NCBI GenBank assembly: GCA_963747695.1
Contig: CAVVFV010000012.1
Location: 98,903-162,902, forward strand
Origin: Candidatus Falkowbacteria bacterium
Lineage (GTDB): Bacteria > Patescibacteriota > Patescibacteriia > Patescibacteriales > WJLG01
Length of the DNA: 64,000 nt
Reading direction: 5' to 3'
Shown here: positions 1-62,255 of the stretch, piece after piece
Layout of the letters: the number at the start of each line of letters is the position of its first letter
Numbering within the stretch: the first letter of the stretch is position 1
Translations under genes and position numbers: made by a program
The notes under the pieces: generated by a model
Told to the model about the DNA's origin: nothing
What the model saw: only the letters and a program-made list of their open reading frames with translations
Database searches by the model: none

Positions 1-1230
1 TTTTATAATATTGTCGGGAATAGACCCTCCCCGTCTTGCGCGGCGCAAGCCACTCCTCCCGGGGAGGGGACTGTTTTAATACTCGCACCGACTTCACTTC
101 GCGGCAAATATTCGCTGGGCAAGGCCCGTCCTGGTGGTTGGTTGATAAAATTTTTAGTCGGCGGGTTGGTTTTCTTGGTGATTAGTTCTTACTGGCTGGC
201 GCCTTATTTCTTAAATCAAAATGCCTCGGTGGTAAATAGTTTTGATCAATCCAATTGGACGGCTTTCCAGACTGCCGGCGATAAGCATTTGGGGACGGCG
301 CTGAATGTCGCGGCGCTGTATGGATTTTGGGAAGAACACGAAAATTGGGCGGGCTATTTTATCTGGCCGAAGGATAATTATGTTTTTTGGTTGATCGCGA
401 CGCTGGCATTGTTTATTTTGATAATCAGCGGCATCGTTTGGGGGATAAAGAAAAAAAGAAAATTGGCTGTCGCGTTATTATTGATCGGCTTGGTCGGTTT
501 TATCTTTTCTTGCGGAGTAGGAGACACTATTTTTAAAAACCTGAATTTATTTTTATTCAATCATCTTTCTTTCTGGCGCGGTTTCCGCGACAGCGAAAAA
601 TGGACAAGTTATCTGATTTTGGTTTACGCGATTTTCGCCGGTTGGGGAGTGATTTATTTAAATGAACTTTGGGAAAAGAAAGGAAAAGCTGGAACGCAAA
701 GTATTGCGTTCCTACCGAAATATTTTGTCTGGCTGTTGATGGCGTTGGCGATTCTAGGAACCTATACCGAACTGGGCGGGTTTGCCCGGCAGTTGCAGCC
801 GGTTTGGTATCCGTCATCCTGGTATCAGGCCAAACAAATAATGGATCAGGATAAAAGTGATTACCGGATTTTATTTTTGCCCTGGCATCTGTATTTTTCC
901 CTGAATTTTAATCGACGCTTGATCACGGCCAATCCGGCTGAACAATTTTTCGGCACTAAAATAATCCAGAGCGGCAATATGGATCTGCCCGGAGCCTCTG
1001 GCGATTATATCGATCCGAAATTCGCCGCGCTGGATAAATTGATCAGCGATAATAATGCCGGTCCCGCCGCTGTTTTGGCGGCACTGCGGGCCGATAAAGT
1101 TAAGTATATAATTTATTTACCGGATGTGGCGGGCGAGGATCAATATCAGTATTATTTCATCAATCAAGCAGCAATCTTGCCAATATTAAATGAAAAAGAT
1201 TTGACATTATTTACCGTTATTGAAAAATAA
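1..1230 (+). CDS. Polytopic membrane protein, C-terminal part (5' end lies outside the window)
   Basis: Frame 1 has no stop from nt 1 up to the listed 142..1230 ORF. Several hydrophobic helices are present (LVGGLVFLVISSYWLA, FWLIATLALFILIISGIVWG, LAVALLLIGLVGFIF), followed by a soluble C-terminal region. Nt 23-71 carry the GC-rich palindromic insert, read in frame. Confidence 0.6.
   Translation, partial: FYNIVGNRPSPSCAAQATPPGEGTVLILAPTSLRGKYSLGKARPGGWLIKFLVGGLVFLVISSYWLAPYFLNQNASVVNSFDQSNWTAFQTAGDKHLGTALNVAALYGFWEEHENWAGYFIWPKDNYVFWLIATLALFILIISGIVWGIKKKRKLAVALLLIGLVGFIFSCGVGDTIFKNLNLFLFNHLSFWRGFRDSEKWTSYLILVYAIFAGWGVIYLNELWEKKGKAGTQSIAFLPKYFVWLLMALAILGTYTELGGFARQLQPVWYPSSWYQAKQIMDQDKSDYRILFLPWHLYFSLNFNRRLITANPAEQFFGTKIIQSGNMDLPGASGDYIDPKFAALDKLISDNNAGPAAVLAALRADKVKYIIYLPDVAGEDQYQYYFINQAAILPILNEKDLTLFTVIEK
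23..71 (+). repeat. GC-rich palindromic intragenic element, copy 1
   Basis: Sequence is GACCCTCCCCGTCTTGCGCGGCGCAAGCCACTCCTCCCGGGGAGGGGAC. It has an internal hairpin (CTTGCGC/GCGCAAG) and a terminal hairpin (CTCCTCC-CGG-GGAGGGG). It is translated as RPSPSCAAQATPPGEGT. Related copies are at 19916-19958 and 29263-29309. Confidence 0.6.
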
Positions 1231-19437: not shown

Positions 19438-21387
19438 ATGGATAAAAATAAGGATCAAATTAAATTAGAATTGCTGGCGCCGGCCAAGGATTTGGCGACG
19501 GGCAAGCAGGCGATACTTGCTGGCGCGGACGCGGTTTATCTCGGCGGGCCGGATTTTGGCGCGCGTTCGGCCGCCTCGAATTCTTGGCAAGACATTAAGT
19601 CGTTGCTTGATTTCGCGCATCAATATTTTGCGCGGGTTTATGTTGCGTTGAATACAATTATTTTTGATAACGAGATCGAAGAAGTAAAAAGTTTTATCGC
19701 GAAGGCTTATGAAATCGGGGTTGACGCGTTGATCATTCAGGATATGGGAATCCTAGAAATGGATTTGCCGCCGATTCCGCTGTTCGCTTCGACGCAATGC
19801 GATAATTCTTCGGTGGAACAAGTCAAATTTTTGGGAGAGGCGGGATTGTCGCGGGTGATTCTGGCCCGAGAACTTAGTCTTGACGAGATAAAAAATATTC
19901 GGGAGAAGACATTAAGACCCTCCCCGGCCGAGGCGGCCACCCCTCCCACGGAGGGGACGAATTTTGTTGAGCTGGAAGCGTTTGTCCATGGCGCGCTCTG
20001 CGTTTCGCAATCCGGGCACTGCTATTTTTCTCAAGCCGTCTGCGGTAAGAGCGCCAACCGGGGAAAATGCGCCCAGATCTGCCGCCAGCCGTTCGACCTG
20101 GTCGATTCAACGGGAAAAGTTTTAGCCAAAGATAAGTATCTATTGTCGCTCAAAGATTTGAATTTATCCGATTCGCTTGGCGAATTGGTCGAGGCGGGAG
20201 TCACTTCGTTCAAGATCGAAGGGCGATTGAAAGACGCGGCTTATGTCGCCAATGTGACGGCCAAGTATCGGCAGGAACTTGATAAAATTATTGCGGCTAG
20301 CGATAGAAAATATCGTCAGGCTTCTTCAGGAAAAATTGAATTAGGTTTTGAACCGGATTTAAATAAAACTTTCAATCGGGGCTATAGCGAATATTTTTTA
20401 CACGGGCGCCGGGGAGAAATCATTTCGCCGCTGACGCAAAAATCGCTGGGCGAATCAATCGGCAAAGTCGTTTCGGCCGATCACTCTCATTTCAGCCTGA
20501 AAGAAAAGCATGATCTGGCTAACGGCGACGGCATCTGCTGGTTTGACCGCACGGGCGTGCTGGTGGGAACGAATGTCAATCTGGTGAAAGACGGAAAAAT
20601 TTATCCCAACAAAGTATTGCCGCTTTCGGTCGGGACGGAAATTTATCGCAATGAAAATCCGGCTTTTGAAAAAGCCGTCGGGCGGGGAGTGGACCGCCGG
20701 ATTGGAGTTGATTTTATCGTCAAGGAAGCGAACACCGGTTTCAAGATCGAGGCGATTGATGAGGACGGAAATTCCGCGGCCAAAGAATTCAAAATCAAGA
20801 AAGAAGCGGCGGCCAAACCGGATTTAGCGTTGAAAAATTGGCAGGATCAGTTTAGCAAGCTTGGTGAAACCATTTTTTACACGCGGGAAATGATTTTTGA
20901 CTGGACAAAGCCTTATTTTGTCCCGCTTTCAGTTTTGAATGACTGGCGCCGCCAGATGGCGCAAGCTTTGCTTAAAAAAAGACTTAAAAATTTTCCGGCG
21001 ATCAAAGTCGAACACAAAAAAACAACTCAGCGATTCTATCAGGACAATTTGGATTATTCTTTCAACGTTGCCAACGAATTGGCCAGAGCTTTTTATCAAC
21101 GGCACGGCGTCAAGAAAATCGAGCCGGCATTTGAGCTGCAAAATGACCATCGCGGCCGGAAATTGATGACCTGCAAACATTGTCTGAAATATTGGCTGGG
21201 AGCCTGCCCGTGGACGCGGGACGCGGCCAGGGCCTGTCCGAAAAAGGGGAGATCGTTAGGTGATTTCAAGGAACCGCTCTATCTGGTCGAGCGAGATAAA
21301 AAATTTCCGCTCAATTTCGATTGTGGCAATTGCCTGCCCGCGGACGCGGGACGCTGCCAGGGCCAGATGGAAATATTTCAGGGTTAA
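19438..21387 (+). CDS. Peptidase U32 family protein (YhbU/YhbV-like) with extended C-terminus
   Basis: LELLAPAKDL...AILAGADAVYLGGPDFGARS and E.EAFVHGALCVSQSGHCYFS are U32 hallmarks. The gene carries one GC-rich palindromic insert and two copies of a 33-bp repeat. Confidence 0.85.
   Translation: MDKNKDQIKLELLAPAKDLATGKQAILAGADAVYLGGPDFGARSAASNSWQDIKSLLDFAHQYFARVYVALNTIIFDNEIEEVKSFIAKAYEIGVDALIIQDMGILEMDLPPIPLFASTQCDNSSVEQVKFLGEAGLSRVILARELSLDEIKNIREKTLRPSPAEAATPPTEGTNFVELEAFVHGALCVSQSGHCYFSQAVCGKSANRGKCAQICRQPFDLVDSTGKVLAKDKYLLSLKDLNLSDSLGELVEAGVTSFKIEGRLKDAAYVANVTAKYRQELDKIIAASDRKYRQASSGKIELGFEPDLNKTFNRGYSEYFLHGRRGEIISPLTQKSLGESIGKVVSADHSHFSLKEKHDLANGDGICWFDRTGVLVGTNVNLVKDGKIYPNKVLPLSVGTEIYRNENPAFEKAVGRGVDRRIGVDFIVKEANTGFKIEAIDEDGNSAAKEFKIKKEAAAKPDLALKNWQDQFSKLGETIFYTREMIFDWTKPYFVPLSVLNDWRRQMAQALLKKRLKNFPAIKVEHKKTTQRFYQDNLDYSFNVANELARAFYQRHGVKKIEPAFELQNDHRGRKLMTCKHCLKYWLGACPWTRDAARACPKKGRSLGDFKEPLYLVERDKKFPLNFDCGNCLPADAGRCQGQMEIFQG
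19916..19958 (+). repeat. GC-rich palindromic intragenic element, copy 2
   Basis: GACCCTCCCCGGCCGAGGCGGCCACCCCTCCCACGGAGGGGAC, with a terminal hairpin CCCCTCC-CAC-GGAGGGG. It is translated as RPSPAEAATPPTEGT between conserved U32 blocks. Confidence 0.65.
21202..21234 (+). repeat. 33-bp GC-rich direct repeat, copy A
   Basis: GCCTGCCCGTGGACGCGGGACGCGGCCAGGGCC, translated as ACPWTRDAARA. Confidence 0.7.
21332..21364 (+). repeat. 33-bp GC-rich direct repeat, copy B
   Basis: GCCTGCCCGCGGACGCGGGACGCTGCCAGGGCC, with 2 mismatches to copy A. It is read in a different frame (CLPADAGRCQG). Confidence 0.7.
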
Positions 21388-28596: not shown

Positions 28597-30357
28597 ATGG
28601 ATAAATTGAAGATTAAAATAAACGGAAAGGATTATACTGCTAACCCTGGCGAGACCGTTCTTGAGGTGGCCAGAGCGCACGGGATCGATATTCCGGCTTT
28701 GTGTTTTCATCCGGATTTTCCGGTCAAAGGGAATTGCCGCGTCTGTTCGGTGGAAGTGAAAGGTTATAAAAGATTGGTGCCTTCCTGCGCGACTTTCGTT
28801 TGTGATTGCATGGAAGTTTGGACCGAAACCGAACGAGTCAAGAAAGCCCGGGTGATGAATATCGAATTGATCTTTGCCGAACATATCGAGAAGTGCGCGG
28901 ATTGCATTTGGCGTTTTCAATGCCCGTTACTCGCAGCGGTAAAAAAATACGGCGTGAAGATCACCCGCTTCCGCGACCGCAAAGGCGCTCGGAAAACTTA
29001 TAAATTCCGCAATGCGGTGGAGATTGACGGCTCACAATGCATTGATTGCAAGAATTGCGTCGAAGCCTGCGCTATGCAGCAGAATATCCATTATTTGAAA
29101 TTTGCCGGGAAGGGGAGCCGCCAGGAAGTCGTGCCGCGGCAGAACGAAGGATTCAAATGTATTTTGTGCGGCCAATGCAGTCTGCATTGTCCGGTTTCGG
29201 CGGCTCAAGAGCAGGCGGAAGTGCCGCAGGTGGAAAAGTTATTGAACGCTAATTCGCGAAAAGACCCACCCCGTCACCGCGGCGGTGCCACCCCTCCCGG
29301 GGAGGGGAATATTCTTGTCGCGCAGTTCGCCCCGTCCGTTCGCGTCACCATCGGTGAAGATTTTAAGATGCCTTATGGTAAGGATACGGCCGGAAAAATT
29401 ACCGCCGCGCTGCGCAAATTGGGCTTTGATTATGTTTTCGATATAAATTTCGGCGCTGATCTGACCACGATCATTGAAGCGGAAGAATTGCTGGAACGCG
29501 TCAAGGATAAGAAATCGATCAAGCCGATGTTCACCTCCTGCTGTCCCGGCTGGGTCAATTACGTCGAATTATTGCATCCGGAACTGATCCCGCATTTAGC
29601 GACGACTCGTTCGCCGCACATCCATCTGGCGGGCGTGGTCAAGACTTATTGGGCCAAAAAAATGGGTGTTGACCCGAAAAGGATCAAATTGGTTTCGATA
29701 ATGCCTTGCACGGCCAAAAAATATGAAGCGGTTCGGCCGGAAATGAAAGTGGACGGAATGCAAGTTATCGATCAAGTTTTGACCACGCGAGAATTATCGT
29801 TCTTATTCAAAAAAAATAACATCGATCTGGCCAAGGTTAGGCCGCAGCAAGCCGATAATCCGCTGGGTAAATTTTCCGGCGCCGCCGTGCTGTTCGGCGG
29901 ATCGGGCGGCGTGATGGAATCAGCTTTGCGCTCGGCCGAATTCTTAGCCTGTGGTCCGCATGCCAAATTATGCCGGGCCAAGATCGATTATAACGAAGCT
30001 AGAGGTTTGGCCGGAATTAAAACCGCGACAGTAGACATTGCCGGCAATAAATTGCGGATCGCCGTGGTCAATGGCATCGGCAATATCGATCCGATCATCG
30101 CCGATCTGGATAAATATGATTATATCGAAGTGATGGCCTGCCCGGGAGGCTGCATCGGCGGCGGCGGCCAGCCGATCCCGACCACGGATGAAATTCGCGC
30201 GGCGCGCATCCAAGCCTTATATCAGATCGACTTTGCCAAGAAGGGGTTTCGCCGGTCTTATGAGAATAAAGGAGTGATGGAAGTGCTTGATTGGGTGAAA
30301 AAAAACAAATTGGAGAAGAAGGTGTTGTTTACGAAGTATAAGAGGCGAAATTATTAA
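28597..30357 (+). CDS. hydA: [FeFe]-hydrogenase catalytic subunit (2Fe-2S plus 4Fe-4S accessory domains plus H-domain)
   Basis: An N-terminal plant-type ferredoxin fold (CFHPDF...GNCRVCSVEV) and 2x CxxCxxCxxxCP motifs. The H-cluster motifs are FTSCCPGW, MPCTAKKYE and EVMACPGGCIGGGGQP. Confidence 0.9.
   Translation: MDKLKIKINGKDYTANPGETVLEVARAHGIDIPALCFHPDFPVKGNCRVCSVEVKGYKRLVPSCATFVCDCMEVWTETERVKKARVMNIELIFAEHIEKCADCIWRFQCPLLAAVKKYGVKITRFRDRKGARKTYKFRNAVEIDGSQCIDCKNCVEACAMQQNIHYLKFAGKGSRQEVVPRQNEGFKCILCGQCSLHCPVSAAQEQAEVPQVEKLLNANSRKDPPRHRGGATPPGEGNILVAQFAPSVRVTIGEDFKMPYGKDTAGKITAALRKLGFDYVFDINFGADLTTIIEAEELLERVKDKKSIKPMFTSCCPGWVNYVELLHPELIPHLATTRSPHIHLAGVVKTYWAKKMGVDPKRIKLVSIMPCTAKKYEAVRPEMKVDGMQVIDQVLTTRELSFLFKKNNIDLAKVRPQQADNPLGKFSGAAVLFGGSGGVMESALRSAEFLACGPHAKLCRAKIDYNEARGLAGIKTATVDIAGNKLRIAVVNGIGNIDPIIADLDKYDYIEVMACPGGCIGGGGQPIPTTDEIRAARIQALYQIDFAKKGFRRSYENKGVMEVLDWVKKNKLEKKVLFTKYKRRNY
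29263..29309 (+). repeat. GC-rich palindromic intragenic element, copy 3
   Basis: GACCCACCCCGTCACCGCGGCGGTGCCACCCCTCCCGGGGAGGGGAA, with a terminal hairpin CCCCTCC-CGG-GGAGGGG. It is translated as DPPRHRGGATPPGEGN in the linker before the H-domain. Confidence 0.65.
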
Positions 30358-53844: not shown

Positions 53845-55170
53845 CAATAAATCAATTCCTGCCCTGCAAAAGTATTTTGGCCGCGACTATTCCTTTGTCG
53901 CTTCTTGGATAAACACTGGCGCTAATGTTTCGTCAACTGCTGCTGCGATTACCGCCAGCTCGCCCGTGCAAAACAACCCGAATTTGGTGACGGCCGATTT
54001 CATTGATAAGGCTTTTTCTTTTTACTATGGTCAGAGGGGAAGATTCCCAAAGTTTGCAGAGCTTCGTGATCAGATCCTGGATAAGCAACAGAGCGAACCT
54101 CTCCCGCCAGGCCAATTTCATAATGATGCTTATTTTCAGGCACGGCAGGAGGCAATTGATCAAGCGTTGGCTGATGATATAAATCATGATAATACTATAG
54201 TAGCCGATCAGCTCGGCGGACAAAAAATTACCGTACCGACGCAAAAAATGATCGATGATTATGTTAATGGAGAAAGCATTAGCGTCCTCCCTCAAGGTGG
54301 TCAAAGCACCTTTAATGGCCGCGGAATTTATCTTTCTTTTCCGACCGATAAAATTTATTTTCCATTAATGTTGACCAGCGTTTATGGAGATAAAATAATT
54401 CCCGCTGAAATAAGAGTAATCTCGCCGGTCGCTCCGAAAATTTTCGGCAATATCCGCATGTTTGCTAAAACTTCCTACTATTCTAATGCTTCTTTGGTTT
54501 TTCGGGATGCGGCGTTGCAGGATTTTTATTCCGGCAGTAAAACCGATTTTATTTACACAAAGATCGACATCAACGCGCCAGCTAAAAATTTAACTAATGA
54601 TCTTTGGATCAGTCCCAATCCTTCATTCCAATATAATTTAATTTCCCTGTTTAATAATTCCTTGTTCTCTTTCTTTATTATTTTAGTGTTATCTTCTTTG
54701 CTGTCAGGAATCATGGCTGGCTGGTTGCTCTCCAGGTTTGCGTGGAAAAGAACGTTGCGTTTTGCCCTAATCGGTTTTTTTAATGTTTTTAGTTTGATTG
54801 GCTTAATTATCGCCGCCAAGTTTCTATTTGTCGATTTTAAGAATGATGGCTATCCTCAATGGGCTTTTTTGCCCCGCGATTTCCGGAGATGGCTTTTCGT
54901 TCCGTTTTTTTCCGCATTATTTATGGGCTGTACTTGGCTAATCATTGAGCTTATAAAAATAATTATTTAATAAAAAATTATATCATTCTGTAATGAATAA
55001 AATTATGAAAAATTTAGTAATAGAGCAGTTTGAACAAGGAATTATAGAACAGGTATGCAGTATCATGGAAGGCGGAGAAAAGGCTTTTAATTAGAGAAAG
55101 AGTAAATATTAGATTTCATTGCGACATTCAACGATGAAATAACATAAAGTTTTTTATCAGAAAGATCATC

Positions 55171-55347
55171 CTCCAAAAAATCTTCGGCTCGAACTTGTTT
55201 TTGATAAATCAAAAACTAAAATTTGTGCCCATCAAACCTTACGCTTCGCTTCGCGAAGCGTTAAAAATTTTTCCTGAAAAAGGGCTTAGTATTATCTGTG
55301 CTCATCTCTATGACCTCGCTCGAAGGTATTTTTTAGATAATTCTTGA
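55171..55347 (+). pseudogene. Detached inverted copy of the recombinase 3' end, carrying the presumed native C-terminus
   Basis: It encodes LQKIFGSNLFLINQKLKFVPIKPYASLREALKIFPEKGLSIICAHLYDLARRYFLDNS*. The first 115 nt or so are about 98% identical to the reverse complement of 50408-50536. No recombinase-like sequence lies upstream of 55171. Confidence 0.7.
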
Positions 55348-55737
55348 CCCAAAACATGGCCGTCTAACCCCCTCCGGCTGCGGCCATTTTGCCCTGTATG
55401 CGCTCAAGGCCAAGGAGGGCCAACTAGTTGAACAGCTATATGAACAGCTGTATGAACGACTAGTTGAACCCGGGTTCATATAGCAGACACTGTTTTAAGA
55501 AGTTATTTTAGCCAAATTCTAATTTTCAAAAATGAGTGACTATTACTCCGACAACGGAATCAACTGAACGACAAATATATATTATTACTACACTAAGATA
55601 TGACGACAAACTACTAATTACAATTACGACTTAAACCAATATTATATTAAATACCAATATTAATTACTGATATTATTTAATTTCAGATACTTCTTTCCAA
55701 CTACTGGCCAAAACCAAGAAAAAAAATGGGGAATGAG
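55171..55737. repeat. Inverted repeat, left copy (recombinase tail, attP-like core and 438-bp arm)
   Basis: 55171-55299 is the reverse complement of 50408-50536. 55300-55737 is the reverse complement of 61613-62048, with scattered mismatches. It contains the TGAAC array at 55429-55483. Confidence 0.85.
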
Positions 55738-56089
55738 GGGGGAACCCATCGCCCCAACATAAGTCGGGTGATGGGTTGGACATATTTTAAATTATAAATA
55801 CTCACGTATAAAAAAATCCATTTTAATTTTCAGCCTTTGCCTATTGGCTAGTATTTTTCTCAGATCGCTGAATTCGAATGTCACTTTCGCCGTAGAGACT
55901 ATTTTTATCGGATGACCTGAGTGGCTGGTCATTGTTAGTCAAAGAGGCTAGCAATAGTATATCCTCATTTTTGTATGAGAAGATACTATTGCACTTGCGC
56001 TTATTCATAAATATTCACGATGATTTTAGTTGATTTCATCTAATATTAGTAATTTTTACAAATTTCAAGCAATTATTATGTAATAGGAC

Positions 56090-56119
56090 TTGACAAAATA
56101 TAAATACACGATGTATTAT
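56090..56119 (+). promoter_or_regulatory. Sigma70-like promoter for the first cassette operon
   Basis: TTGACA (56090-95), an 18-nt spacer and TATTAT (56114-19), lying 37 nt upstream of ATG 56156. Confidence 0.4.
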
Positions 56120-56155
56120 GTAAATAGACAATACACTTACATAAAATTTAAAAAT

Positions 56156-56371
56156 ATGAGTGAAACAAGATATGAAAGATTTAAAAGGCTAGCAGAGGCC
56201 AGGACGAATATAATTATACAGAGAATTAAAATCCTCGGTAATTGCTCGAATAGGAGTTCATATGATTATACTTCCGAAGATATCGATAAAATATTTAATG
56301 CCATTTCGAAGTATTTGAAAGATACAAGGGCAAAGTTTTCATTTCCTGGAGAACGGAAGTTTAAGTTATGA
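56156..56371 (+). CDS. Small (71-aa) helical protein, first gene of the cassette
   Basis: Start placed at MSETRYERFKRLAEARTN because the longer ORF start overlaps the promoter-like motif. The stop overlaps the next start (ATGA), suggesting translational coupling. Confidence 0.55.
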   Translation: MSETRYERFKRLAEARTNIIIQRIKILGNCSNRSSYDYTSEDIDKIFNAISKYLKDTRAKFSFPGERKFKL

Positions 56372-57831
56372 TTATGAATAATTACGACTCAGGAATCGAA
56401 GAGGTTATCGGTTCTGTTATATCTTTTTTTAATGTAGATAGAGATTTGTTGTTTGGAAATTCCAGAAAAGCAGAAATTGTAGAGGCCAGACATGTATTAG
56501 CCTACTGTTTAAGAAATAAATTTAGACTATCATTCCCAGCAATAGGAGAAATCTTTAACAGGGATCACACCTCAATTATGCATGCATGCGAAAACGCTTG
56601 CATAATTATTGAACGAAATATAAAGTTAAAAGTTTTTATTGATAATTTGATAAATTCAGGGGACAGTGAATATAAAGATATTAGTGAAGTAGAGGGTGAA
56701 GATGTTGGTAAGGTGGTAAGCGAAGATATAAAAACAACTAATAACCCGGAAGAGTTGAAGAAATATTTAACATTTAAACGTGAGTTGGAAGATAAAGAGC
56801 ATGAAAGGAATATGACGGAACTAAGGAAGAACAGAGAGGGTAAAATTTCAAATGCAAAAGCCGAATATGCAAAAGCAGTGATCAATGCTAAAAATGAATA
56901 TGAAAACAACTCTATTAAATTAATAGAAGGAAGAGCTAAAAATATAAGAGAACATAGAAGTGCGATGTTTTGGCTCAAGATTGGTAGGTATTCAGAGGCG
57001 AATGAGTATCTGAGTCCCAAAAAAGAACTTTTAGAAAATAACGATTTCAAAAAGGATATTGTAAATTTCTTGCCTAAATTTAAGACCGAAGTTAAAGAGC
57101 TTGTTTTTCCGATCGAATTTAATAAAGAGTATCTTAGAAATTGCTTTGCAGACTTGGATGACAGATCGAAAAATATTCTTATTAAAAGATATGGTTTTGA
57201 TGATGAAAAAACATCAACACTGGAAGAGATTGCGGTAATTGAAAAAATATCGAGGGAAAGAGTGCGCCAAATTTTGCAAACAGGTATAAATAAAATTTAT
57301 TTTAATAATTGTGGCGGGTTGAGACAGGTTGTTAATTCGGTTGCGGGGAAAATATTAAAAGAAGATTTAGTATTTATTGATAAGTGCTTGAATGAATTTT
57401 TTATATTTAATAAGGAAGATGAGAGTCTGCTCAGAAGACTGATTTTAGTGATAATGCTATCCGTAAAATGGATTAAGGAATTTGATTTTTCTGGCTATAA
57501 ATTTTTCATTAATTCATCTAACGAAAAGAAAGTAATTGAACAAATTGATCATATTAAATTGCTAATCGGAAAGATTGAAGCGGCGATGCCTGATATGATA
57601 TTAGATCGTTGGCAATATGTTCTAAATAATTTAAAGTTGTACGAATTCTTTCAAGATAAAAAACATTTATTGGATGATGCATTTTTAAGAGCCTGCTATG
57701 ATAATTTTTTGTTTGAAAGCGAGATAGTTGTTTATAAAACAGAGGTTCTTAAAAAGTATAAGTCATATAACGATGCTGATCAGGAGCAGGTTGAAGGTGT
57801 CCCCAACGAATATAATGTTTTTTTCGAGTAG
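56368..57831 (+). CDS. Dual-HTH protein: DnaA-domain-IV-like HTH, coiled coil, sigma70-region-4-like HTH, unknown C-terminal domain
   Basis: The N-terminus LLFGNSRKAEIVEARHVLAYCLRNKFRLSFPAIGEIFNRDHTSIMHACEN matches the DnaA C-terminal DNA-binding signature (R..R...AMYL.R.....S...IG..F..RDHTTV.HA). Residues 270-300 or so, LIKRYGFDDEKTSTLEEIAVIEKISRERVRQILQTGINKI, match sigma70 region 4.2. Confidence 0.7.
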   Translation: MIMNNYDSGIEEVIGSVISFFNVDRDLLFGNSRKAEIVEARHVLAYCLRNKFRLSFPAIGEIFNRDHTSIMHACENACIIIERNIKLKVFIDNLINSGDSEYKDISEVEGEDVGKVVSEDIKTTNNPEELKKYLTFKRELEDKEHERNMTELRKNREGKISNAKAEYAKAVINAKNEYENNSIKLIEGRAKNIREHRSAMFWLKIGRYSEANEYLSPKKELLENNDFKKDIVNFLPKFKTEVKELVFPIEFNKEYLRNCFADLDDRSKNILIKRYGFDDEKTSTLEEIAVIEKISRERVRQILQTGINKIYFNNCGGLRQVVNSVAGKILKEDLVFIDKCLNEFFIFNKEDESLLRRLILVIMLSVKWIKEFDFSGYKFFINSSNEKKVIEQIDHIKLLIGKIEAAMPDMILDRWQYVLNNLKLYEFFQDKKHLLDDAFLRACYDNFLFESEIVVYKTEVLKKYKSYNDADQEQVEGVPNEYNVFFE

Positions 57832-57854
57832 TATTAATAATTTAACCTAACCAT

Positions 57855-59357
57855 ATGGGAAAAACAGTTTACAATATAACACCAGACATTTCTCTGATGC
57901 CCAAACTCGGAAAATCTGGCTATTCTTCTCCGCAGGCAATCGCTGAGTTGGTGGACAATTCTATTGATGCCAGAATAGAGGGCAAAGTGTTAAACGTGGT
58001 AATTAAGATAGAGAAAAATGTAATCAGTATAGCTGATAATGGTTCTGGAATGGATGGAACACAATTAGCTGATGCTATGACACTTGCACACTCAAATAAG
58101 GAGAATAAATTGGGCGAGTTTGGCCTTGGCTTAAAAACCGCATGTAATAGTTTGGGGGAGAAATTTGAAATTATAACCTCTCCGGCAAACGATAGCAAAC
58201 AGTATAGGTTTGTATACGATCAAAAGGAGTGGATGGGTAAACAAAAGTGGGAGATCGATATAGAGTCCTTAAAGGCGGAAAGCGATATGCATTTTACCGT
58301 AATTAAAATTGAGAACTTGTCTAAAAATATTCCTGGACTGCCGGATGTTTTAAAAAGAGATATGGAAAGAAGATTCGCCCCTTTTATAGAAAAAGGAGAG
58401 GTTACTATTAAAGTGAACGGGAAAGAGTGCAAGCCTGGCAAGCACGATTTGATTGAAGGATCCAGAAAAGAATTTAACCTCGATGTTGTAAGTGGAAAAT
58501 TTAAAGGTGAAAAAATATATGGCTGGTATGGGTTGCTTAAAGAAGGCTCAAATAAGGGTCTTTATGGTTTTCATACTTATCGAAGAGGGAGAATGATTAC
58601 GACTTATGACAAGATGGTTATCGGTGAACATCCTACAATTTCAAGAATTATAGGTGAGATAAACATGGATTTTGTCTCCGTGACTCACAATAAGAAAGAT
58701 TTTATAAGAGAAAGTGATGAGTTCGCAATGGCAGAGGAATTATTAAAAGAAGAGTTAAAGAATATTCTAAAAGAGGCTAAAAAGAAGTCTGGCCAAGACA
58801 AGATTACGAAAAACGTAATGAACGATTTAGACGTTTGGAAAGAAAAAATCAGTAAGGCGGTAATGGAATCACAGGATTTAAAATGTTATACGTCTCAAGT
58901 TGATATTAAAACGGGAATGGTCAAGGATGATGACGGTAAGGACGAGGAGGTTCTTGGTGAAAAAAGAGAAAGCAAGAAGGGTGGACACGGAACCGTAAAA
59001 CCAAAATCGACAGATGCGGTAAGGGTGCCAAAAAAGGAGAATGAAAATATAAAAAAGATAATTAAGGTAAAGGGTAAAAAATTTGAATTCGATCACGAGT
59101 TCTCTTCTCTGGGTCAAGATTCGGCATGGAAACAATATGAGTTTGACAAGGAAAAAAGAAAAATTGTTGTTTATACAAATATTGATTTTCCAGCATTCTC
59201 AACAACAAAAGACACGGCCTTCTACGCCGTTTTGCATATTGCAGAGTCAATTGCAGAGATCATGGTTACTGAGGTTGGGGAAGAGATAGGTAATTTGCAA
59301 GAGATAAAAGAAATTATTTTAAAAACAGCGTCAATTCTTAAAAACCAAATTGATTAA
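57855..59357 (+). CDS. GHKL-superfamily (MORC/HATPase_c_3-type) ATPase
   Basis: The Bergerat-fold motifs are the N box AIAELVDNSIDA, the G1 box ISIADNGSGMD and the G2 box LGEFGLGLKTA. These are followed by a YRRGRMI segment, a Lys/Glu-rich linker and a C-terminal globular domain. Confidence 0.8.
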   Translation: MGKTVYNITPDISLMPKLGKSGYSSPQAIAELVDNSIDARIEGKVLNVVIKIEKNVISIADNGSGMDGTQLADAMTLAHSNKENKLGEFGLGLKTACNSLGEKFEIITSPANDSKQYRFVYDQKEWMGKQKWEIDIESLKAESDMHFTVIKIENLSKNIPGLPDVLKRDMERRFAPFIEKGEVTIKVNGKECKPGKHDLIEGSRKEFNLDVVSGKFKGEKIYGWYGLLKEGSNKGLYGFHTYRRGRMITTYDKMVIGEHPTISRIIGEINMDFVSVTHNKKDFIRESDEFAMAEELLKEELKNILKEAKKKSGQDKITKNVMNDLDVWKEKISKAVMESQDLKCYTSQVDIKTGMVKDDDGKDEEVLGEKRESKKGGHGTVKPKSTDAVRVPKKENENIKKIIKVKGKKFEFDHEFSSLGQDSAWKQYEFDKEKRKIVVYTNIDFPAFSTTKDTAFYAVLHIAESIAEIMVTEVGEEIGNLQEIKEIILKTASILKNQID

Positions 59358-59733
59358 TTAAACTCAGGAGTACGAAGAAAATTTTGGTTTTATGGACAAA
59401 ATAGAAGTCTGTGAAAAAATAAAAAAAGGTACACGTAAAATTACTGTGATTTTCGAGCACTGTTTAGTTAGTCTGGGATAGGTGTTAAAGTTAACTCGTC
59501 GAGACTTTTATTAACGGGTAATTTAGTTAATGTGAAAGGGTAATTTATTTGATTGATAACTCTGTGACGTAGGGATCCACACTCGATTCCCCGGCAAATT
59601 AGCTGGAATTATATACTAGAAAGGAATAATGGTAGGATTGCTAGATTCAGAAAAATTAGTTCCCAATAGCTCCGCAGCGGCTTTGTTACATAAACTTATA
59701 ACTTGACGTTTACAATAATAAAAATATTAAAAA

Positions 59734-60933
59734 ATGGATACTAAAACTTTTTCAGAGTTATTAAAAGACGATGTTATCGAACAAATACAAAAAGTAGATT
59801 TAAAATCTAAAGATTGGGACGCGTGGTTTTTAAAATGGAAAGATCCAAGCACAAGAACTCAAATTATTTGGATTCTTAGGGATTTAGCAGAGAAGAAAGA
59901 ATATGTAGATAAAATCGTTGCAATAGCGGACATGTATTCGAAAGACCCTAATCCTGATGGAGATTTTGACGACTTAAATAAAAAAATAGAGGCCGGAGAA
60001 GATATCCGTTCTATATATACAGTCAGAGGAACTTTGCCGTGGCTTTTGCAAACATTAATAGCCACTTTTAAAACAGAGTATTACCCAGATATTTTAAAAA
60101 TAACAGAAAGATTAATTGAAGATCAGGTATATTATGTTAGGCAGCAGGCTACCGTTCCTCTTTCTCTTTTTGTAGCCAACCTTCGTGCCAAAAAAAACGT
60201 TGATGGAACAGATTTTAATTTTACTGATAAAGACAAGAGCAGTGCATATAGTCTCTCGTTTAAGATGCTTAGAGAGAATTGCAATCTCCCGCGAGTATTA
60301 GAATACGTGTCTAATGTATTTGATAAGTTAAGAAATATAACAGCGGAAGAGGCAAAAGAAGTGCTAACAACTTTTTGCTATAATGAAAAAAAAATTAATC
60401 CTGAATACCTAACTAGCCACGTAGTTCCTCTAGTAATTTTCTTCGCAGAGTTTAGAAAAAAAAACGAAGCAGGTTTTGATAATTATTGGTTCCAGGTTTT
60501 TTTAGAAAATTTTATTAAAGATGCCAAAGATTCTTGCCTAAGAAGTACATTAATCTGGCATATGTGGCGGGTGATTGAAGAAGATGCGTCTAATTATCAA
60601 TTGGTTAAAAAGTATATACCATTGCTTTTTGAAAATATTTCCGATCATGAGCCTGTGGGGCAGATGGAATTTTTAGTAAATGAAGTTTTAAAAGCTGATT
60701 CCAAAGACGGTATTGAACTATATATAACATTCCTTAATTATTTAGATAAAATGAATTTTTCTAGTTCTTTTAAGCTTTGGCTTACCCAAACAGAGGAAAC
60801 ATTGGAACGTATCAAAAAGATAGATTCTTCAAAAGTATTAGAGATTTTACCCTTACTGAAAGGATTACGTTTAAAAGGTTGTTATGTCGGCGATGAAAAA
60901 ACAATTTTTCCCGAGGAATCGGCTGATAAATGA
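59734..60933 (+). CDS. All-alpha HEAT/ARM-like repeat protein (function unknown)
   Basis: A 399-aa protein with a helical-repeat appearance (e.g. VRGTLPWLLQTLIATF, YYVRQQATVPLSLFVANL) and no catalytic motif recognised. It is preceded by a 376-bp non-coding spacer. Confidence 0.6.
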   Translation: MDTKTFSELLKDDVIEQIQKVDLKSKDWDAWFLKWKDPSTRTQIIWILRDLAEKKEYVDKIVAIADMYSKDPNPDGDFDDLNKKIEAGEDIRSIYTVRGTLPWLLQTLIATFKTEYYPDILKITERLIEDQVYYVRQQATVPLSLFVANLRAKKNVDGTDFNFTDKDKSSAYSLSFKMLRENCNLPRVLEYVSNVFDKLRNITAEEAKEVLTTFCYNEKKINPEYLTSHVVPLVIFFAEFRKKNEAGFDNYWFQVFLENFIKDAKDSCLRSTLIWHMWRVIEEDASNYQLVKKYIPLLFENISDHEPVGQMEFLVNEVLKADSKDGIELYITFLNYLDKMNFSSSFKLWLTQTEETLERIKKIDSSKVLEILPLLKGLRLKGCYVGDEKTIFPEESADK

Positions 60934-60937
60934 TTTT

Positions 60938-61435
60938 ATGAATGAACTGGATAAGTTAAAGACAGAGATTAAAAATGATTTGATGAATATTAAAGAATTT
61001 TTTGAGGCATCTCTTAATTCATATGTTTCAAGTGCTACAAGTGGTAATACCGGAACTCAACCAGTCGCAAATGATCCGATTCAAGGAAGAAAGAAACATT
61101 TTTTAGAAAACTATATGTTAGTTTTTCCCAGCCTTCTTTATAGGACCATCCTTAAATTAGGAAAAAGAATAGAGAAAATTGATCAGGGGTTGTTCACTAT
61201 AAATTTTAAATACACCAATCCAAGAAATAATTTGTGTTATATAGGTCCAAAAGGCAGAGAAGTCGAAGAGATAAGGGGATTGAGAAATTATTTTTTTCAT
61301 GGCGACGATATGCCTAATAAGGGTTTTGCTGATGCGTTTAAAAATTACCCACCAGACAAACCGATTGAACTTGAAGGAAAGGATGTGACGAGGCTTATAA
61401 AAAATTGTGAAGATGCTATAAACAAAATTATTTAA
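60938..61435 (+). CDS. Minimal HEPN-like protein (putative RNase effector)
   Basis: Start placed at ATG 60938, 4 nt after the upstream stop. R-x4-H motif with the typical polar second residue: EEIRGLRNYFFHGDD (AGA codon at 61283). The predicted helical protein is 165 aa, consistent with a minimal HEPN domain. Confidence 0.55.
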   Translation: MNELDKLKTEIKNDLMNIKEFFEASLNSYVSSATSGNTGTQPVANDPIQGRKKHFLENYMLVFPSLLYRTILKLGKRIEKIDQGLFTINFKYTNPRNNLCYIGPKGREVEEIRGLRNYFFHGDDMPNKGFADAFKNYPPDKPIELEGKDVTRLIKNCEDAINKII

Positions 61436-61612
61436 TTGAAATGGGTCTGACCTCTGCTTGATGAAGCAAAGGAATTGAACAGCTAGCCATATAAATAACC
61501 AAAAAACAGCTATATCCTAGCCGCTTATCAACCCCCGTCGTCAATCATCCCGTTAGCCCGTTAATAACCCCGTAATTGTTTTGCCCATCCTGTTTTCACC
61601 CAGTCTTTTCCT

Positions 61613-62048
61613 CTCATTCCCCATTTTTTTTCTTGGTTTTGGCCAGTAGTTGGAAAGAAGTATCTGAAATTAAAGAATATCAGTAATTAGTATTGGTAGT
61701 TAATATAATAATTGGTTTAAGTCTTAATTATAATTAGTAGTTTGTCGTAGTATCTTAGTGTAGTAATAATATATATTTGTCGTTCAGTTGATTCCGTTGT
61801 CGGAGTAATAGTCACTCATTTTTAAAATTATATTTGGCTAAAATAACTTCTAAAAACAGTGTCTGCTATATGAACCCGGGTTCAACTAGTCGTTCATACA
61901 GCTGTTCATATAGTTGTTCAACTAGTTGGCCATCCTTGGCCTTGAGCGCATACAGGGCAAAAGGCCGCAGCCGAAGGGGGTAGACCGGCCATGTTTTGGG
62001 TCAAGAATTATCTAAAAAATACCTTCGAGCGAGGTCATAGAGATGAGC
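61613..62048. repeat. Inverted repeat, right copy (its outer end is attR)
   Basis: The reverse complement of 55300-55737. It carries the TGAAC array at 61867-61927 and ends ...GGTCATAGAGATGAGC at the tRNA terminator hairpin. Confidence 0.85.
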
Positions 62049-62098
62049 TTGTGAAATAAAAATAAGGCGCGCCTAGCGCCTTATTTTTATTTCACAAG
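62048..62098 (+). terminator. Perfect 23-bp-stem hairpin; presumed native terminator of tRNA-Gln (B' arm of attB)
   Basis: CTTGTGAAATAAAAATAAGGCGC-GCCTA-GCGCCTTATTTTTATTTCACAAG. Confidence 0.7.
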
Positions 62099-62255
62099 AC
62101 GAAATGCTGTTTGACAAAATGTTATATTGTTGGTAATATAAGATTTGTTTTCTATTTCAAAATAATTGTGCTTCATATCGGAAATTTCGCCAGAACCCGC
62201 CGGGGTTACGCCGAATAGCTATTATTTTAAATTAATCACTATTTATATAAAGAAT

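Follow-up and report, generated by a model that had tools for sequence, protein, structure and literature searches.

Short palindromic elements within three genes of a Patescibacteria-like genome, and related DNA that brackets DUF559 nuclease genes in other bacteria

Why should three unrelated protein-coding genes on one stretch of bacterial DNA (64,000 nucleotides, hereafter the window) each carry a GC-rich palindrome of the same design, and where could such a sequence have come from? A preliminary description of this DNA had placed three copies at 23-71, 19916-19958 and 29263-29309, in frame on the sense strand of genes for a membrane protein, a U32 protein and an [FeFe]-hydrogenase, and both the positions and the reading frames proved correct. 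Its statement that the elements are far richer in GC than their hosts also held (0.76-0.81 in the three copies versus 0.43-0.53, about 0.46, in surrounding DNA). As part of the explanation developed below, we consider it probable that what the genes share is a short palindromic DNA element, present as three solo copies, and not a protein motif. The elements and their host genes are as follows.

1..1230, + strand: host gene 1, the 3' two-thirds of a gene for a 594-aa multi-pass membrane protein
12..22, + strand: 5' extension of copy 1, TGTCGGGAATA, bases also found before other copies
23..71, + strand: element copy 1, inside the multi-pass membrane protein ORF; 5' block GACCCTCCCCG at 23-33, central hairpin CTTGCG/CGG/CGCAAG at 35-49, 3' hairpin CTCCTCC/CGG/GGAGGGG at 53-69, then A
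19438..21387, + strand: host gene 2, U32 peptidase-family (RlhA-type) protein, PF01136 and PF12392
19916..19958, + strand: element copy 2, inside the U32 peptidase-family gene; 5' block at 19916-19926, central hairpin GGCCG/AGG/CGGCC at 19926-19938, 3' hairpin CCCCTCC/CAC/GGAGGGG at 19940-19956
28597..30357, + strand: host gene 3, group A [FeFe]-hydrogenase with Fer2_4, Fer4 and Fe_hyd_lg_C domains
29263..29309, + strand: element copy 3, inside the [FeFe]-hydrogenase gene; 5' block GACCCACCCCG at 29263-29273, central hairpin CACCG/CGG/CGGTG at 29275-29287, 3' hairpin CCCCTCC/CGG/GGAGGGG at 29291-29307

The window copies are 43-49 nt long and are translated in their host frames as RPSPSCAAQATPPGEG (copy 1), RPSPAEAATPPTEG (copy 2) and DPPRHRGGATPPGEG (copy 3); 17 of the 18 frames of the three elements are free of stops. 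An internal hairpin had been reported for copy 1 alone, but all three copies have a central hairpin with a 5-6 bp stem and a 3-nt loop. The 3' hairpin CYCCTCC-N3-GGAGGGG occurs at exactly three sites in the window, which are the three copies; its pattern count of 6 (palindromic sites being counted on both strands) compares with 0.27 expected and was reached in none of 100 shuffles. The 5' block GACCCWCCCCG likewise occurs at three sites only, all on the + strand and each upstream of the hairpin. Its count alone is weak evidence (3 versus 1.09 expected), but the combination of block and hairpin is not, and pattern scans found no other GAGGGG or CCCCTC site in the window with a hairpin. All three copies are solo, and since their linkers differ there is no sign of a recent burst. 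Their shared strand, correctly noted before, is weak evidence because most large ORFs of the window lie on the + strand and only three copies are involved. In the related MAG DATJQC01 (L065) the bases of the copy 1 extension are also found ahead of an intergenic copy, and two copies in L007 have similar bases in front of them; the form of the element particular to this lineage may therefore begin further upstream than position 23.

If these segments are insertions, relatives of the host proteins should lack them. The membrane protein gene starts 555 nt upstream of the window, and copy 1 starts 22 nt from the window edge; completing the gene with Logan contig L101, which extends the window by 599 nt, places the copy at about residues 193-209 of the 594-aa multi-TM ORF. 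This protein has no Pfam match, and the segment is missing from all 19 aligned homologues. In the U32 protein, whose homologues are named 23S rRNA 5-hydroxycytidine C2501 synthase (JGI), the insert lies at about residues 160-175 within the span of PF01136 (residues 80-326) and is absent from P0003, P0007, P0008, P0011-13 and all more distant homologues. The hydrogenase insert, at about residues 222-236, falls between the Fer4 domains and PF02906; it is lacking in the closest relative (P0121, 89% identity) as well as in P0125, P0127, P0130 and P0134, and alignment with the solved HydA1 structure (PDB 8a6t_A) leaves a 12-residue gap at the insert. Mapping the inserts on structures, as the preliminary description had proposed, put them in predicted disordered loops: AF2 models gave pLDDT <50 and coil for hydrogenase residues 223-234 and for U32 residues 161-174, in each case between well-modelled elements. 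Going by these models, the inserts are tolerated in such loops.

Comparisons at the DNA level point in the same direction. In the syntenic close relative L102 both testable sites (U32 and hydrogenase) are empty, and this relative carries a reverse intergenic copy where the window has none. The U32 site is filled in L271 and L270 with hairpins unlike that of copy 2, and the three lineages with an element at this identical point have different linkers, one of them in another frame. In DATJQC01, the linker of the U32 copy is that of an intergenic copy in the same genome. The element is read as THP..HPSREG in P0006 and as TPAFGHPSQEG in P0139, in both cases in a frame other than in the window, so that the shared reading frame seen earlier among the window copies is real but does not amount to a strict rule. 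Neighbor-joining trees of both host proteins interleave filled and empty alleles, and the best homologues of the host proteins are labelled Patescibacteria. From these sequence comparisons, the element has been gained or lost at the host sites and is not ancestral there, in keeping with the earlier view that the segments are not ancestral protein sequence. No target-site duplication was visible between filled and empty sites. The three host genes are essential-looking, and we infer that the host derives no function from the copies in the window.

The search for further copies, also suggested beforehand, extended the family well beyond these relatives. Its module can be written ACCC(A/T)CCCC-linker-CCCCTCC-N3-GGAGGGGA, that is, a 5' block ACCC(A/T)CCCC, a fast-changing linker, and a 3' hairpin CCCCTCC-N3-GGAGGGG followed by A. 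A census with a strict 27-base pattern yielded at least 101 copies in at least 100 genome stretches from at least eight phyla (Cyanobacteria, PVC phyla, Rickettsiales, Chloroflexota, Acidobacteriota and others), and a looser pattern found 115 copies in 84 viral stretches (IMG/VR). The element family is thus pan-bacterial and not lineage-specific. The preliminary description knew of no account of the element in this kind of genome, and our search of the literature on palindromic elements in CPR/Patescibacteria and on DUF559 found none either (sequence words as query brought up nothing but eukaryotic literature on other subjects), but the element is not special to such genomes.

Outside the window the element measures 27-54 nt. 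About 90% of the 101 copies listed lie outside a long open reading frame, mostly in intergenic DNA, and only 9 of the 101 have at least 60 open codons on both sides; in contrast, all three window copies are intragenic. Copies occur in both orientations, and about 40% of the 101 listed form inverted pairs (20 tail-to-tail, 19 head-to-head, one with partners on both sides and 61 solo). Linkers are shared within a genome and differ between genomes (JAUIHQ01, 8 copies; CAZCDO01); copy numbers within genomes reach 8 in JAUIHQ01 loci and 7 in JAITCH01, compared with 3 in this 64 kb. The variable-length linker aligns poorly. Among unique linkers, the mean perfect stem is 3.9 bp versus 2.7 bp in shuffles. 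The linker hairpin has CGTC at its 5' foot in copies 1 and 3, as do roughly a third of linker types, but neither copy 2 nor the common GGCC-N3-GGCC forms carry this tetranucleotide; no GTAG tetranucleotide was found at the palindrome end. Two structural candidates were discarded. Apparent UNCG tetraloops (TTCG, TGCG and TACG loops, an RNA signature) resolved into GGCC-N3-GGCC with 3-nt loops once the register was corrected, and an intramolecular triplex, in which the CCTCCCC of the 5' block could pair with GGAGGGG by parallel Hoogsteen bonding in the first two copies, was dropped in view of an A at the key position in 97 of the 101 copies listed.

Which enzyme might serve such an element? When all 2232 ORFs around the 101 copies listed were compared against one another, few families recurred near elements, and of these only DUF559 is nuclease-like (4 loci, adjoining the element in 3). 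No other nuclease or transposase family, including Y1-type, recurred among these 2232 ORFs, though a RAYT present at a single locus would be missed. Support came from 80 independent metagenomic DUF559 loci fetched by protein similarity alone: 27 of them carry the motif on both sides (GGGGWGGGT no more than 200 nt upstream and ACCCWCCCC no more than 150 nt downstream) and 15 more on one side. Close to the DUF559 gene the motifs numbered 41 in 15.5 kb and 38 in 12.5 kb, versus 4 and 3 per 251 kb far from it, with only 2 and 3 motifs in the wrong orientation, an orientation-specific enrichment of more than 150-fold. An association with a nuclease, which the preliminary description had thought worth seeking, therefore exists in other bacteria, where the same module brackets DUF559 endonuclease genes, but is not shown for this lineage.

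Twenty-nine cassettes parse as hairpin-linker-GGGGTGGGT ... ORF ... ACCCACCCC-linker-hairpin. Such cassettes span 0.45-0.7 kb, occur in many bacterial phyla, and have as their sole gene one for a DUF559 protein of 123-142 aa that matches PF04480 (E 1e-24 to 1e-37; the match to PF18741 is sub-threshold); among the columns conserved in the protein are the D of IVDF and, in E-x-D-G-x-x-H, the E, D and H. It is thus the cassettes, and not the window, that encode a Vsr-like PD-(D/E)xK nuclease; published classifications put DUF559 together with Vsr and a homing endonuclease of a group I intron (PMC3424549; PMC9403480 citing Taylor 2011). Cassette ends and head-to-head doublets share the order hairpin-linker-GGGGTGGGT / ACCCACCCC-linker-hairpin, and each window copy corresponds to one cassette end only. 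Gene-less head-to-head doublets occur in several phyla with unrelated spacers of 14-40 nt, and look like internally deleted cassettes. No direct repeat indicating target-site duplication was found at the 29 cassette borders, and the 0.45-0.7 kb cassettes contain no recombinase gene.

About 30 of the 80 DUF559 loci lack such flanks. At least 8 of the motif-less loci have inverted repeats of 13-41 nt with a similar architecture and a variant sequence. The variants track different DUF559 genes. The variant types of the inverted repeat are GGGGTGGGT, GGGGTGTT and GGGGGATT. Contigs with DUF559 genes are mostly shorter than 3 kb, as expected of repeats that break assemblies, and these very short carrier contigs suggest that the gene is itself multi-copy. 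When the 64-kb window and 35 kb of DNA from relatives (L101-L104) were searched with tblastn, no DUF559 gene was found. None of the best 120 DUF559 hits in a profile search was named Patescibacteria, and those that were named were Bacteroidota, so the partner enzyme is not shown for this lineage. Phages were also considered as carriers of the cassettes and rejected, given that the elements of viral contigs have no DUF559 gene nearby and only 1 of 13 viral-contig DUF559 genes has flanks. Homing of the gene into the element, or its inversion by way of the repeats, would lead one to expect the bracketing of DUF559 genes just as much.

The explanation we favor, and think somewhat more probable than its competitors combined, takes the copies in the window for solo ends of the DUF559 cassette family, non-autonomous and surviving only in permissive loops. 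Element anatomy, wide distribution, DUF559 bracketing, presence/absence polymorphism at identical sites and loop location are observed; that DUF559 is the mobilizing enzyme, and its cutting chemistry, are inferred without biochemical data for this DUF559 subfamily. The nuclease would recognize and cut the hairpin-forming ends, and cutting would move, or promote the copying of, its own cassette and the gene-less derivatives (solo ends and head-to-head or tail-to-tail doublets), much as a RAYT serves REP/REPIN and an IS serves its MITEs. In a gene-dense Patescibacteria-like genome most landing sites would be coding. With almost every frame free of stops, copies of a net length divisible by three that land in permissive surface loops might then persist as peptides. 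More tentatively, and with reservations that outweigh our confidence, DUF559 genes with composite hairpin inverted repeats and their 30-55-nt gene-less solos and doublets could constitute an unrecognized, pan-bacterial class of minimal mobile elements parallel to RAYT/REPIN.

Several other readings must be weighed against solo cassette ends. The variable length of the hydrogenase linker among homologues would suit the idea that evolution at the protein level produced the PSP…ATPPGEG segments as ordinary low-complexity linkers of this lineage. Comparison with orthologues and at the DNA level refutes this idea and leaves it next to no credibility: the same DNA occurs in three unrelated genes, is read in different frames in relatives, is present in intergenic DNA and other phyla, and is missing from the closest relatives. 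We regard as very unlikely a role in RNA, whether as terminator, mRNA stabilizer or serC-leader-like stem-loop, with the coding copies as exaptations or accidents. Folding predicts two stable stems, A/T-rich sequence often follows intergenic copies, and all three window copies lie on the sense strand, but folding z-scores are only -1.5 to -2.6, a terminator within the hydrogenase gene would be harmful, and the occurrence of both orientations and of inverted pairs bracketing a gene is a symmetry of DNA. No Rfam family reaches threshold at the three window sites; the serC leader (RF00517) is the only similarity, and its 10.9 bits (window 29280-29312) and 26.5 bits (L147 230-268) are far under the gathering score of 35. 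Moreover, template-switch correction can keep quasipalindromes self-complementary without any selection on RNA. A REP/REPIN family moved by a RAYT (Y1) or an IS200/IS605-type TnpA acting on single-stranded hairpins, with the DUF559 link incidental, also seems to us decidedly improbable. It has to contend with the lack of a recurrent Y1-type family near the elements, with the strength and orientation of the enrichment at DUF559 as the bracketed gene, and with sequence blocks conserved across phyla, whereas to our knowledge each RAYT lineage has its own REP. In its favor, the elements are short GC-rich palindromes with 3-nt loops that form solos, inverted doublets and clusters as REPINs do (PMC3116915), and CGTC at the foot of the linker hairpin recalls the CGTC-tagged REPs of PMC3733652, but this tag is missing in copy 2 and the GGCC-N3-GGCC forms.

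The remaining two readings concern the cassettes themselves. The element could be the target, with DUF559 as a free-standing homing endonuclease that cleaves an intact head-to-head doublet (…GGGGTGGGT/ACCCACCCC…) and whose gene is then copied in by repair, the short elements spreading by some other, unknown route. The gene always lies between two inward-facing ACCCACCCC blocks, the composite site is palindromic and would suit a dimeric PD-(D/E)xK enzyme, gene-less head-to-head doublets are known, and DUF559 has homing endonucleases among its relatives (PMC3424549 and PMC9403480). We still find homing unlikely, since the gene-less doublets hold an unrelated spacer and not an abutting site, the tracking of DUF559 genes by repeat variants fits ends that co-evolve with an enzyme, and the spread of solos and tail-to-tail doublets is left unexplained. 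The flanking repeats might instead be recombination sites at which the nuclease gene undergoes programmed inversion (phase variation), and the dispersed copies relics. Among the inversion targets predicted in a systematic screen, 'DUF559 domain-containing protein' is enriched 14-fold and 'endonuclease domain-containing protein' 9.6-fold (PMC9881135), which is the only link between DUF559 and repeats that we found in the DUF559 literature. Any gene between inverted repeats would yield that enrichment, however, and a cassette without a recombinase gene, together with the inability of inversion to create at least 101 dispersed copies or in-frame inserts, makes this reading scarcely plausible.

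Our data extend the phenomenon described for RPEs, selfish palindromes inside essential proteins, to Patescibacteria-like bacteria. The same permissive loops (the hydrogenase inter-domain linker and the U32 barrel loop) have been struck repeatedly by different hairpin elements, and it follows that a short GC-rich insert in a CPR protein is better taken for a scar of mobile DNA than for an adaptive domain; such inserts can mislead alignments, trees and structure models. The elements also explain assembly breaks at their loci. Taken with the DUF559 cassette, the element suggests a type of selfish DNA that has not been described before. For DUF559, which has thousands of members and no assigned role, this gives a testable hypothesis, namely that it is the enzyme of a REP/RAYT-like system with ends conserved across phyla. 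If true, a very large domain-of-unknown-function family would gain a function, and RPE-like in-frame inserts in essential Patescibacteria-like enzymes and phage genes would be accounted for. Peptides of the 'TPPxEG / HPSxEG / PLPxGEG' type occur in hypothetical proteins, and these might be explained as well. Small elements with well-defined ends are, in addition, attractive for studying hairpin DNA recognition and movement.

Among known systems, the small dispersed repeats of cyanobacteria, reportedly treated by Elhai et al. in 2008 and mentioned in PMC3116915, are in some cases nested and hairpin-forming, and we know of no report linking them to DUF559. They resemble the present element in being very short and mobile-looking. 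Unlike MITEs, our elements show no target-site duplication, their parent encodes no recognized transposase, and the window solos are half an element with a single end. Correia elements are one example of MITEs, and at 43-49 nt the window copies are shorter than any MITE known to us. The likeness to MITEs, including intragenic ERIC (PMC10969869), lies in non-autonomous derivatives that keep the ends of a gene-bearing parent, in head-to-head doublets whose 14-40 nt interior resembles that of internally deleted cassettes, and in in-frame fusion with host ORFs. Homing endonucleases of the Vsr-like/EDxHD type (I-Bth0305I family; PMC9403480 citing Taylor et al. 2011; PMC3424549, family 58) belong to the same fold family as DUF559 and are evidence that an enzyme of this fold is able to mobilize the gene encoding it; they reside in group I introns or inteins, unlike the free-standing cassettes with composite inverted repeats and dispersed gene-less copies described here.

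As with REP/REPIN (PMC3116915; PMC3733652), short GC-rich palindromes occur as singlets, inverted doublets and clusters, and as with REP/RAYT, inverted copies bracket a single small gene and form within-genome families. The bracketed gene, however, encodes a DUF559 Vsr-like PD-(D/E)xK nuclease and not a Y1 transposase, and RAYTs are single-copy where short contigs suggest a multi-copy DUF559 gene. The element is, moreover, a composite of a third C-rich block, linker and hairpin with blocks conserved across phyla, and unlike extragenic REPs it also has copies inside coding sequence. The comparison with RPEs made in the preliminary description is supported by behavior and not by homology, no RPE sequences having been compared. 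Every outcome that this description had named as refuting its reading was checked, and each check came out in the reading's favor. Like RPEs, the window element is palindromic selfish DNA lying in frame within unrelated housekeeping genes of a small, gene-dense genome, open in the frames read and, according to predicted models, tolerated where the protein fold permits. The likeness does not extend to size or range: RPEs are palindromic elements of ~150 bp (Ogata et al. 2000, 2002, as summarized in PMC10969869) in ten families confined to Rickettsia, whereas the present element, 43-49 nt long in the window, ranges over many phyla and viral contigs, lies mainly between genes in other lineages, and belongs to a family that has an associated gene.

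The GC-rich palindromic element was recovered at three places in the window with the sequences originally reported, each time on the coding strand and in frame with its host gene:

23-71, + strand: element copy 1, GACCCTCCCCGTCTTGCGCGGCGCAAGCCACTCCTCCCGGGGAGGGGAC, in a multi-pass membrane protein gene
19916-19958, + strand: element copy 2, GACCCTCCCCGGCCGAGGCGGCCACCCCTCCCACGGAGGGGAC, in a U32-family gene
29263-29309, + strand: element copy 3, GACCCACCCCGTCACCGCGGCGGTGCCACCCCTCCCGGGGAGGGGAA, in an [FeFe]-hydrogenase gene

The 3′ hairpin pattern was restricted to these sites (0.27 expected; the six matches reported by the scan count palindromic sites once per strand), and no shuffle attained the observed number. 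The 5′ block was confined to the same sites, always on the + strand. As the preliminary description had claimed, the copies are far more GC-rich (0.76–0.81) than the surrounding DNA (~0.46), and 17 of their 18 reading frames are stop-free. Each copy is predicted to fold into a pair of neighbouring hairpins whose loops are 3 nt long; the central one, earlier ascribed to copy 1 alone, thus appears in all three. Its sequence is different in each, and none of the three copies is a recent duplicate of another.

Copy 1 lies 22 nt from the window edge, and its host, completed with a Logan contig (L101) extending the window by 599 nt, is a 594-aa protein in which the element occupies a loop between predicted helices. 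Copy 2 falls within the PF01136 domain of the U32-family protein, and copy 3 lies in the hydrogenase segment that joins the ferredoxin-like domains to the H-cluster domain. For both enzymes, the best-matching homologues carry the labels Patescibacteria, Paceibacterota, Nealsonbacteria or Falkowbacteria, indicating a Patescibacteria-like organism. In the AlphaFold2 model of the hydrogenase (mean pLDDT 74.7), residues 223–234 form a coil with pLDDT below 50, flanked by helix 209–220 and strand 239–244, and when the protein is aligned with the experimental HydA1 structure (8a6t_A), a 12-residue gap falls at the insert. The U32 model (mean pLDDT 85.3) places its insert in a similarly low-scoring segment (residues 161–174, pLDDT below 50) between helix 148–158 and strand 178–185. 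These predicted models agree with placement of both inserts in tolerated surface loops.

That the elements were inserted, as first proposed, was supported by homologues lacking them at all three protein sites. The ~39-aa membrane-protein segment holding copy 1 is missing in 19/19 homologues. The U32 insert occurs in the window protein and its homologues P0002, P0004, P0005, P0006, P0009 and P0010 (in part in P0014) and is missing in P0003, P0007, P0008, P0011–13 and every more distant homologue. In the hydrogenase, P0121, the nearest relative at 89% identity, has a short lysine-rich linker without insert, as do P0125, P0127, P0130 and P0134. At the DNA level, the U32 and hydrogenase sites are both empty in L102, a 21.7-kb syntenic stretch from a close relative; at the U32 site its sequence runs CAGACA|AATATTGAC, and the 48–51-nt insert of the window is missing. 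L102 also has a reverse-oriented element copy, absent from the window, in the spacer after an ECF-transporter gene. In rough NJ trees of the U32 and hydrogenase proteins, alleles with and without the element intermingle, which implies several gains or several precise losses. We consider it very probable that the copies are inserted selfish DNA elements.

Other hydrogenase relatives carry different hairpin-type peptides in the same place. P0139 has the same element family in another frame (HTPAFGHPSQEGN) and P0124 a short form, TTPNPSLKRRG. Further such peptides in the alignment (about window 29240–29320) were seen in P0122 (THPRLRQGLRRGE), P0123 (THPAFAKASAGKP), P0126 (TTPSHHPQPLLRQEGS), P0129 (two PLLSKER units) and P0135 (HPQTPPWKGGG), suggesting use of this permissive linker by more than one element family. 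At the U32 site, the window, L271 (from the related MAG DATJQC01) and L270 share the insertion point and the orientation of their elements, which have different linkers and, in L270, also a different frame. The DATJQC01 U32 copy has its linker in common with an intergenic copy in the same genome (L065), suggesting within-genome homogenisation or re-insertion from a resident master copy. This MAG (GCA_035506055.1; L065, L007, L271) is labelled "Candidatus Nanoarchaeia archaeon" by NCBI; its contigs include a bacterial-type DNA polymerase III alpha start (MSFVHLHNHTHYSLLDG..., our reading of L065), its U32 protein is 76–79% identical to that of the window, and the label looks wrong.

Several other features of the window were observed. 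L101 starts within GC-rich hairpin-like sequence (positions 1–40, ~560–600 nt upstream of window position 1; ...CGCTTCGCTTTGCGGGGCAAGCGAGAGGGGAATAT) just 5′ of the membrane protein ATG, and the assembly break there seems to lie at another repeat. Directly 3′ of copy 1, window 72–140 encodes ~22 extra residues (VLILAPTSLRGKYSLGKARPGG), missing in 19/19 aligned homologues, which may be a second, decayed insert; a fold test on this DNA was not significant (z = +0.65). An unrelated 33-nt GC-rich repeat, GCCTGCCCGYGGACGCGGGACGCKGCCAGGGCC, occurs at 21202–21234 and 21332–21364 (31/33 bases identical) in the C-terminal part of the U32 gene, with a different reading frame for each copy (...ACPWTRDAARACP... 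and ...CLPADAGRCQGQ...). Its first copy is common to the window and P0003 only and its second is found in the window only; both regions have low pLDDT in the U32 model (596–605 and 634–636). Finally, window ~54000–64000 (GC down to 0.31–0.40, strong positive GC skew, ORFs of at least 80 aa almost lacking between 61.4 and 64 kb) resembles an acquired or defence island, and its ORFs include:

56368-57831: ORF with DnaA C-terminal HTH and sigma-70 region 4 domains
57855-59357: MORC-like GHKL ATPase ORF with HATPase_c_3 and Morc6_S5 domains

The element extends well beyond this genome. A strict pattern (GACCCWCCCC-N8-25-CCACYCCTCC-N3-GGAGGGG) matched at least 101 copies in at least 100 stretches of a species-representative genome collection, from Cyanobacteria, Verrucomicrobiota, Kiritimatiellia, Lentisphaerae, Rickettsiales and other Alphaproteobacteria, Chloroflexota, Acidobacteriota and Acidimicrobiia as well as a Thermotogaceae MAG and DATJQC01. 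From the size of the collection, we estimate that ~27 specified bases at this rate are beyond chance. Linkers are palindromic, varying between genomes and common within a genome. Only 9/101 copies have at least 60 open codons on both sides, so that outside this genome the element is mostly intergenic. Most of the 101 are solo (61), with 20 in tail-to-tail pairs, 19 in head-to-head pairs (spacing 14–40 nt) and one with partners on both sides. Relaxing the pattern gave 115 copies across 84 IMG/VR stretches; 43 of these copies are within long open frames (individual genes unverified). One 24.7-kb viral contig (IMGVR_UViG_3300033405_000945; L208, L225, L247, L252) has more than 12 copies in both orientations, and others have 2–3 each. 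No Rfam family matches the element. Its sole similarity there is to the alphaproteobacterial serC leader (RF00517), with 26.5 bits at L147 230–268 and 10.9 bits at window 29280–29312 (gathering score 35); its consensus hairpin, CACCCCUCCC...GAGGGG, is similar to the 3′ hairpin, and the leader might be a domesticated or coincidental element copy.

When 2232 ORFs around the 101 copies were compared all-against-all, the families that recurred were ABC ATPases, TPR proteins, response regulators and a single nuclease-like one, DUF559 (PF04480), whose gene adjoins elements directly in three stretches (L092, L097, L060). Among 80 metagenomic DUF559 loci picked by protein similarity alone, 27 had the motif on both sides (GGGGWGGGT up to 200 nt upstream and ACCCWCCCC up to 150 nt downstream), 5 upstream only, 10 downstream only and 38 neither. 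Motif density by the gene was 41 per 15.5 kb and 38 per 12.5 kb, compared with 4 and 3 per 251 kb at distances above 500 nt, and wrong-orientation motifs numbered just 2 and 3. Twenty-nine cassettes parse as T-CCCCTCC-N2-4-GGAGGGG-linker-GGGGTGGGT ... 361–618 nt ... ACCCACCCC-linker-CCCCTCC-N2-4-GGAGGGG-A, with ends of both short-linker form and the hairpin-linker form of the window (e.g., L147, L109, L118, L092). In type examples, the left repeat ends 17–40 nt 5′ of the ATG and the ORF spans 123–142 aa. At least 8 motif-less loci have inverted repeats of 13–41 nt in a similar architecture with variant blocks (e.g., GGGGTGTT or GGGGGATT). In L107 (4340–4390) and L116 (4340–4402), the DUF559 ORF reads through its own right-end repeat and so gains a C-terminal tail (for example, KPTPYPSQEGN or KPTPNPSREGS); the nuclease itself thus bears the window-type peptide, and the element is translated in its own cassette too. 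Contigs with DUF559 genes are mostly under 3 kb, as expected of repeats that break assemblies. Around one DUF559 gene (L110 1175–2340), ACCCWCCCC and GGGGWGGGT alternate at least 10 times at ~50–100-nt spacing, a BIME-like cluster of doublets.

In our interpretation, the window copies are solo "ends" of the cassette family. We further propose, at somewhat under even confidence, that DUF559 is the mobilising enzyme; it would act on the hairpin ends and mobilise short derivatives in trans. This proposal rests on the REP/RAYT- or IS/MITE-like arrangement and on a fold family with homing endonucleases: members of the Vsr-like family include Vsr as well as a homing endonuclease from a group I intron (PMC3424549), and DUF559-containing intein genes have been placed in the EDxHD homing endonuclease family (PMC9403480). 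Bracketing could equally arise from homing of DUF559 into an element doublet. It could also reflect repeats serving inversion, a reading hinted at by a systematic screen in which DUF559 was enriched among predicted inversion targets (PMC9881135). No DUF559 gene was found in the window or L101–L104 and no Patescibacteria among the named DUF559 protein matches, so the enzyme remains undemonstrated in this lineage, where the window copies are possibly relics. Target-site duplications were found neither at cassette borders nor between filled and empty sites. We found no paper on the element or on a link between DUF559 and flanking repeats, though not all journals were covered.

The coding location of the window copies may follow from gene density, the near-absence of stops and selection, which would leave only insertions of a multiple of three in permissive loops. 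Template-switch correction of quasipalindromes is established, and could keep linkers palindromic despite fast change; the palindromy is not evidence for RNA function.

Two points are of interest: in Patescibacteria-like bacteria, essential enzymes have been colonised in frame, repeatedly and at the same loops, and the element has a strong, orientation-specific tie to DUF559 cassettes, which gives the DUF559 family a testable role. The preliminary likening to Rickettsia palindromic elements (PMC10969869) stands for in-frame, tolerated insertion in a small genome and fails for size, host and associated gene, which the present element has. Of the MITE hallmarks, a target-site duplication and a known transposase are both missing. 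REP/REPIN-RAYT systems (PMC3116915) share a small gene bracketed by inverted palindromes, gene-less singlets and doublets, and ends varying with the gene, an organisational logic also seen in an IS with its MITEs; they differ in enzyme class (here a Vsr-like PD-(D/E)xK nuclease), composite architecture and cross-phylum conservation. The finding is real and its original interpretation holds: these are REP/MITE/RPE-like selfish palindromes.
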